A stretch of DNA of 64,000 nt, from NCBI RefSeq assembly GCF_057098645.1, contig NZ_CM169472.1. One strand, given 5' to 3'. The notes below the pieces were generated by a model. The model ran no database searches. It was not told the origin of the DNA and saw only the letters and a program-made list of their open reading frames with translations. Below, one piece after another: positions 25,735 to 25,777 of the stretch (positions are counted from its first letter, which is position 1; each line of letters begins with the position of its first letter). Position numbers and translations under genes: made by a program.

Positions 25735-25777
25735 CCGAAGCCGGATGTGGCGCTGAGCGCGCCCAGTCCGGCTTCGG
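25735..25777. terminator. Long palindrome between convergent yeaX and rnd
   Basis: CCGAAGCCGGA...TCCGGCTTCGG. Confidence 0.5.

Follow-up and report, generated by a model that had tools for sequence, protein, structure and literature searches.

REP-related hairpins in the shared 3' ends of two convergent gene pairs of Escherichia coli

The convergent gene pairs yeaX/rnd and yeaD/yeaE of E. coli each carry a GC-rich hairpin in their shared 3' ends (site 1 and site 2, respectively). Our analysis confirmed both palindromes as real, single-copy hairpins, and both descend from or resemble the REP repeat. They are already catalogued as two-way transcript end points and are, in this respect, ordinary known biology. 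The most likely role of the yeaX/rnd hairpin is that of a pause site and exonuclease barrier, which fixes and protects 3' ends, mainly those of the rnd mRNA, and the yeaD/yeaE hairpin most likely works likewise. We regard as probable the whole explanation for site 1, namely a decayed REP that was remodelled in E. coli proper and serves as pause site and exonuclease barrier, with release of transcripts by Rho further downstream. What is added here is that the yeaX/rnd hairpin, though unannotated, goes back to a REP and shows a self-perfecting series of alleles; beyond annotation, the significance is small.

The window (the whole stretch of 64 kb that was analysed) is collinear with K-12 MG1655 1,863,955-1,925,081 except for two insertions, and MG1655 positions at site 1 are converted to window positions by subtracting 1861080. 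The queried yeaX-rnd segment of 701 bp is 100% identical to that of E. coli O145 strain RM9872. Relative to MG1655, an insertion of 2.64 kb lies at window 1145-3783 and splits yeaE, the minus-strand neighbour of the site 2 hairpin, in this strain. It encodes a 548-aa ORF (1266-2912, +) with integrase-core (rve) and Mu-transposase C-terminal domains, which point to an insertion sequence; the IS21 family is a guess made from these domains. A stretch of 224 bp between dmlA and yeaV (21847-22070, junction at MG1655 1883151) has no MG1655 counterpart, and appears to hold a reading frame led by ATG, perhaps the start of yeaV.

yeaX (+) and rnd (-) form a convergent pair with 53 bp between their stop codons, and the site 1 hairpin lies inside this gap, flanked by both stops, where the earlier note had placed it. 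That note described an 11-bp perfect inverted repeat. The description is correct for the two outer arms of site 1 but not for the element taken whole, which is a palindrome with 19-nt arms of 84% complementarity, nor for site 2. The RNA of site 1 folds at -39.3 kcal/mol on the plus strand (z -5.6) and at -34.4 kcal/mol on the minus strand (z -6.3), a stability that was equalled by 0 of 200 shuffles. Counting perfect inverted repeats with arms of 11 nt or more and loops of 3-30 nt gave nine in the window, against 0.48 expected from dinucleotide shuffles, and the chance of finding such a repeat inside this particular 53-bp gap is about 4e-4. Since the hairpin has no U-tract in its 3' flanks (AAGAUUUUAC on the plus strand, CAAACUAC on the minus strand), it is not a classical intrinsic terminator, and a consensus terminator scan made no call at it. 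Rfam matched no family at either the site 1 or the site 2 hairpin.

Table 1 Window coordinates of the features at the two hairpins.
Feature	Position	Strand	Description
Site 1 left arm, CCGAAGCCGGA	25735-25745		11 nt, perfect complement of the right arm
Site 1 right arm, TCCGGCTTCGG	25767-25777		Ends in TTCGG
Site 1 spacer	25746-25766		21 nt; contains the inner 5-bp stem and the loop UGAGC
Site 1 inner stem	25749-25753 / 25759-25763		GGCGC / GCGCC
Site 1 REP-homologous core, GCCGGATGTGGCGCTGAGCGCGCCCAGTCCGGC	25740-25772	+ (head to tail)	Model positions 2-31 of 35
Overlapping region of terminator table row 155	25729-25781		rnd RNA (-) ends at ~25729, yeaX RNA (+) at ~25781
yeaX stop codon, TAG	25728-25730	+	4 nt upstream of the stem
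rnd stop codon, TAA	25784-25786	-	6 nt from the stem in rnd sense
C-rich, G-poor stretch	25535-25734	-	C/G 2.1 over the 200 nt downstream of the site 1 hairpin in rnd sense; contains the Rho peak; rut-like
Site 2 hairpin	790-832		Between the yeaD and yeaE stops; outer stem ATGTTG/CAACAT
Site 2 inner arms, GTGCCGGGTGC / GCATCCGGCAC	797-807 / 811-821		One G.U or C.A position
yeaD stop	778-780
yeaE stop	831-833	-

The second palindrome, which the earlier note had given as a similar GC-rich element at 790..826, is real and lies between yeaD and yeaE. Its stem is imperfect, however, with inner arms that are 91% complementary, and an outer extension carries it to position 832. The fold amounts to about -26 kcal/mol on each strand, weaker than that of site 1. 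No U-tract is present in its 3' flanks (CACACCAU / AUUAACGC), and the reported lack of T-runs thus applies to both hairpins. Other perfect inverted repeats of 10-12 bp are found in the window at 50570-50599, 33381-33413, 48186-48220, 17663-17688, 4365-4389 and 51656-51683. Several of them sit at other convergent junctions (yebQ/htpX, yoaC/yoaH, yobH/kdgR and yoaJ/yeaQ), and several have A-tract/T-tract arms, unlike sites 1 and 2. In addition, an 11-bp perfect inverted repeat at 38904-38936 (CGGCATAATGG...CCATTATGCCG) falls inside pdeD at its 3' end, close to the gap of 3 bp that separates it from the convergent yoaE, and would be a hairpin in coding sequence.

We aligned 19 genuine palindromic units that belong to annotated REP elements of MG1655 and built from them a REP covariance model of 35 positions. 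The top match to this model on either strand of the whole window is site 1, with 16.1 bits and an E-value of about 0.04, a borderline score under a rough calibration with filters off that counts against the decayed-REP account. It is also the best match in the corresponding MG1655 region. Genuine REP units score 34-45 bits, and those outside the training set 22-41 bits. The core matches the model in its head (GCCGGAUG), in the inner stem (GGCG/CGCC) and in the base (UCCGGC). The core region shows the REP pattern of a palindrome that is imperfect, about 35 nt long and made up of a GCC(G/T)GATG head, GGCG/CGCC pairing and a GCCGGA/TCCGGC basal stem. In common with the REP or PU types Y, Z1 and Z2, site 1 has the head GCCGGATG, the inner and basal stems, the length and an extragenic position between convergent genes. 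It differs from them in that the TTA bulge is replaced by CAG, and in that the CTAC (GTAG) foot, the RAYT recognition tetranucleotide, is absent and a TTCGG tail that pairs with the 5' flank stands in its place. In contrast to REPs and BIMEs, it is single-copy, unpaired and unannotated, and its score is about 16 rather than 34-45 bits.

Rigid consensus and regular-expression searches, which are too strict for a degenerate unit, found no canonical REP anywhere in the window, and the sequence GGCCTAC is attached to neither hairpin. Site 1 is not among the annotated MG1655 REPs: in the table of bidirectional terminators discussed below, its row (155) lacks a REP flag and that of site 2 (152) is flagged REP133. 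The feature table of NC_000913.3 is uninformative in this regard, as it shows no REP even at the true yaaX/yaaA BIME. Despite its overlap with REP133, site 2 reaches only background level with the covariance model (11.0/8.8 bits in the window, 13.4 bits in MG1655). Site 1, at 16.1 bits, is therefore at least as REP-like as an annotated REP, and where degenerate units are concerned the boundary of REP annotation is arbitrary. Downstream of yeaG, a small GC-rich hairpin (window 7545-7572, +; GGCCCGGTAcacatgcTACCGGGCCTAC) has a true GGCCTAC REP foot, scores 13.4 bits in the window against 15.6 bits in MG1655, and may be the annotated REP134; a Term-seq 3' end of yeaG is at 1868879(+).

We inspected the 3' flanks of rnd at 80 loci of other species. 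At the position of site 1, Escherichia strain E69 carries AGCCGGAUGCGGCGCuggUUGCGCCUUGUCCGGCUUAC, which matches the REP model over its full length (36.9 bits, E 7e-8) and at 31 of the 35 consensus positions, including the UAC tail. The elements of Escherichia sp. E1V33 and E. albertii score 22.3 and 14.5 bits. The flanks of these elements can be aligned on both sides, which indicates that the elements are orthologous. The similarity check suggested with the first description therefore came out positive at both hairpins, site 2 overlapping REP133 and site 1 being the top model match with a canonical REP as its orthologue in E69.

In a tree of rnd, E. albertii is the outgroup and E69 falls outside E. 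coli proper. Both retain the REP-like tail GGCTTAC (TTACG/TTACA; UUAC in RNA). The tail of E. coli proper, shared by Escherichia sp. MOD1-EC7003, reads TTCGG, which differs by two substitutions and pairs perfectly with the CCGAA opposite; this CCGAA of the left arm is ancestral in Escherichia. E1V33 and SCPM-8794 instead have CTGAA and T-CAGG, where pairing is kept through a C-G to U-A exchange and a 1-nt bulge. This single compensatory pair was read by eye, since the alleles of E1V33 and SCPM have a 1-nt bulge that MAFFT is unable to position. Predicted stabilities for the same construct are about -20 kcal/mol in E. albertii, about -29 kcal/mol in E69 and E1V33, and -34 to -37 kcal/mol in E. 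coli. We propose that a single decayed REP, one palindromic unit, would have been fixed between yeaX and rnd before Escherichia diversified, and that in E. coli proper it may then have been remodelled into a longer and more perfect hairpin.

A hairpin of -10 kcal/mol or better was found within about 100 nt of the rnd stop in 80 of 80 orthologues. All significant REP-model matches in 475 kb around these orthologues (21/21) lie directly after rnd. By inspection, the elements in the 3' flank are genus-type REP pairs in Enterobacter, canonical BIMEs in Citrobacter amalonaticus ku and Kluyvera georgiana, and classical terminators with A-tract, hairpin and T-tract in Kosakonia and Klebsiella. An automatic sorting of the 80 flanks into types with and without a U-tract was rejected, as it misclassified obvious A-tract/T-tract terminators. 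Since every locus has a hairpin and the types differ by genus, the hairpin after rnd is constant across genera and its type turns over.

In the 80 orthologues, the strongest hairpin begins at a median of 4 nt past the rnd stop, similar to the stop-to-stem spacing at site 1 (4 nt for yeaX and 6 nt for rnd). Such spacing would suit a translation-coupled regulator, in which the hairpin stalls the terminating ribosome, triggers tmRNA and lowers the yield of RNase D or YeaX. Effects of this kind were reportedly described by Liang, Rudd and Deutscher in 2015 for REPs within 15 nt of stop codons. In MOD1-EC7003, however, the rnd frame continues into the hairpin and the gene is not obviously lost. We consider translational coupling improbable as the explanation of site 1, and it could instead add to the pause-and-barrier role. 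The rnd stop TAA of MOD1-EC7003 reads TAC (locus L053 3626-3649), so that the frame takes in seven codons of the hairpin before it ends at a TGA in the loop; the sequence beyond the hairpin in this strain is not yeaX.

By BLAST, which recovers near-identical copies only and misses family-level similarity of about 13 nt in a database this large, the site 1 element is present once per genome (median) in 5,423 of 5,426 complete genomes. Extra BLAST places occur in records with a short allele and are probably the palindrome matching itself on the other strand. The long-loop allele is carried by about 4,070 genomes, 2,006 of them identical to the window. A short allele, which lacks TGTGGCG through a 7-nt deletion and is a near-perfect 36-nt palindrome, is carried by 1,306 genomes (~24%); hairpins shorter by 7 nt number ~1,350 overall. 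Stem-breaking variants, such as CCAAAG in strain 1500, are rare. The conservation, together with the exact placement in the 53-bp convergent gap, the nested inner stem, the low fold z-scores on both strands, the REP orthology and the RNA 3' ends mapped on both strands, effectively refutes a chance palindrome without function. About 0.5 perfect 11-bp inverted repeats would indeed be expected per 64 kb, yet this reading is barely credible for site 1.

In about 1,050 complete E. coli genomes, the match begins only in the last ~25 nt of yeaX (window 25707-25734). In ZH193, the one that was inspected, dmlA through most of yeaX has been lost, and dmlR/dmlA remnants are found upstream (locus L005 2134-2500). 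The hairpin is intact beside rnd in this strain, as the allele that is shorter by 7 nt. That the hairpin is retained next to rnd where most of dmlA-yeaX is gone supports the pause-and-barrier explanation.

A live REP or BIME could act at the DNA level, as a substrate of the RAYT transposase or as a site for gyrase, Pol I or a nucleoid protein, with effects on RNA being incidental. The established REP homology and the canonical REPs and BIMEs in the rnd 3' flank of several genera fit this possibility. Against it, the GTAG/CTAC foot is missing in E. coli proper, the element is a single unit with no BIME partner and a score far below the range of genuine REPs, and across strains it occurs once per genome with no change of copy number or position seen. 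Furthermore, Harris et al. 2026 (bioRxiv 10.64898/2026.03.23.713779) saw no role in chromosome compaction for their model REP, REP325. We thus consider a DNA-level function very improbable.

A rare form of the short allele has a different centre. It is found as six exact copies among the 5,423 genomes, including IAI39 and CE10 (locus L006 1501-1550), and its 14-nt centre CTGGGCGCGCTCAG is the exact reverse complement of CTGAGCGCGCCCAG in the common short allele. This could be an inversion of the centre, or paired transitions at two opposed positions. Tentatively, the yeaX/rnd hairpin may record hairpin-templated (quasi-palindrome) mutation that turned a fossil REP into a better stem-loop, a reading to which we give somewhat less than even credence. 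It is favoured by the change from TTACG to TTCGG in one step, which perfects pairing with the pre-existing CCGAA, and by the different solution, CTGAA with T-CAGG, in E1V33 and SCPM-8794, which are cryptic lineages but not sisters in the rnd tree. The 7-nt deletion, which removes asymmetry, and the centre-inverted allele point in the same direction. If true, 3'-UTR hairpins would evolve mainly by self-templated correction, and selection on independent point mutations would have the smaller part. With its long, short and centre-inverted alleles, the locus could provide a ready natural series for testing hairpin geometry against 3' ends and rnd expression.

The RNA 3' ends at both hairpins were taken from a published table of overlapping bidirectional terminators and not re-derived from raw reads. 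We take the source of this table to be the SEnd-seq study of Ju and colleagues from 2019, as the names of the table columns suggest. The table is reproduced with an added column for REP overlap by Harris et al. 2026 (10.64898/2026.03.23.713779). Row 155 is yeaX:rnd:fadD (MG1655 1886809-1886861), without a REP flag, and row 152 is gapA:yeaE:yeaD (MG1655 1864739-1864785), overlapping REP133; both are listed for log and stationary phase. The row 155 ends lie 6 nt (rnd RNA) and 4 nt (yeaX RNA) beyond the stem. In the Term-seq data of Adams et al. 2021, a yeaE 3' end is located at the site 2 hairpin (MG1655 1864735/1864740(-), window ~781/786), and no 3' end is listed at the yeaX/rnd hairpin, which counts against our explanation. 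Overlapping convergent ends are thus mapped at both hairpins, with the Term-seq end of yeaE as independent evidence at site 2. Taken together with the REP similarity and the lack of U-tracts, this supports the proposal of the earlier note that these are REP-like or RNase-protection hairpins rather than simple terminators.

Both hairpins share the features of this class of terminators, in that they lie in convergent gaps and are spanned by overlapping 3' ends. Many other members of the class in the window (for example 50570-50599 and 33381-33413) have A-tract/T-tract arms, whereas sites 1 and 2 are GC-rich and lack a U-tract. According to Wang et al. 2022 (bioRxiv 10.1101/2022.10.23.513370), terminators of this class are hairpin-dependent, neither intrinsic-like nor Rho-dependent, and driven by collisions between RNA polymerases. 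This description of the class as Rho-independent and collision-driven, in the source of the 3' ends, speaks against our explanation. A serious rival remains, in which site 1 is an autonomous, factor-independent bidirectional terminator whose hairpin traps converging RNA polymerases until they are released by head-on and trailing collisions. On this model, transcription would truly terminate at the mapped 3' ends, which would not be products of processing. The listing of both hairpins in both growth phases and the strength of the hairpins on both strands are as this model would have it. However, the expression baseMean of rnd is 1883 and that of yeaX is 65. With rnd about 30-fold above yeaX, collisions involve only a small share of rnd transcription, and head-on collisions cannot explain most rnd 3' ends. 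The hairpin is also kept where most of yeaX has been deleted along with dmlA-yeaW, and a stalled exonuclease would equally be expected to leave ends at 4-6 nt from the stem.

The Rho data weigh further against an autonomous terminator. Adams et al. 2021 report a Rho termination region at MG1655 1886672(-), window 25592, antisense to yeaX (Rho score 5.0, p 9e-8), which lies 137 nt past the hairpin in rnd sense. A second region, at 1865455(+) and antisense to yeaE (score 4.7), lies about 670 nt downstream of site 2 in yeaD sense. Their presence downstream of both hairpins, in an independent data set, fits poorly with a strictly Rho-independent class. The sequence downstream of site 1 in rnd sense is rich in C and poor in G (Table 1), whereas C/G is 1.1-1.3 downstream in yeaX sense. 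Dar & Sorek 2018 (PMC6061677) described Rho-dependent transcripts that end just past stable stem-loops without a U-tract; these stem-loops protect the transcripts against PNPase and RNase II, and rut sites follow close behind. As read from the rnd strand, site 1 resembles these protective stem-loops in having a stable, U-poor stem-loop with neither U-tract nor A-tract at the 3' end followed by a BCM-sensitive region with C in excess of G, while the yeaX strand is a weak fit given its C/G. The absence of U-tracts and the Rho regions downstream of each hairpin on one strand fit a protective role. The Rho regions were, however, defined with 800-nt windows, and BCM unleashes antisense transcription, which leaves read-through of this particular hairpin unproven. 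For the yeaX/rnd member, the published Rho data and the local composition favour a barrier combined with Rho over an autonomous terminator, which we consider an unlikely alternative overall.

In the pause-and-barrier explanation, the shared 3' UTR would fold, in the transcript of either strand, into a very stable stem-loop 4-6 nt past each stop, and the hairpin would pause or obstruct RNA polymerase. Transcripts that read through, chiefly those of rnd, would be released by Rho within a few hundred nt, in the C-rich sequence antisense to yeaX, and could then be trimmed back to the foot of the hairpin. This trimming would give the sharp overlapping 3' ends seen by SEnd-seq, stabilise the rnd mRNA and limit antisense transcription into the neighbouring gene. 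In this scheme the pausing, the exonuclease trimming and the stabilisation are inferred; the hairpin structure, its homology to REPs, the excess of C downstream and the published 3' ends and Rho region are shown. Evidence to the contrary comes from Harris et al. 2026 (10.64898/2026.03.23.713779), who found no general gain in half-life for genes with terminal REPs.

Several other transcript features were observed in the window. The repeats at yoaJ/yeaQ and yoaC/yoaH correspond to rows 154 and 156 of the same bidirectional-terminator table. The sroD sRNA matches Rfam at window 26937-27022 (-) with 108.5 bits; it lies between fadD and rnd, directly upstream of the latter, and has a Term-seq 3' end at 1888018/1888020 with a T-tract terminator (Adams et al. 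2021). Rfam matches at gathering score were also found for a cspA-type thermoregulator at the cspC leader (46072-46532, -) and for the overlapping SraC/RyeA and SdsR/RyeB sRNAs (62020-62164, +/-).
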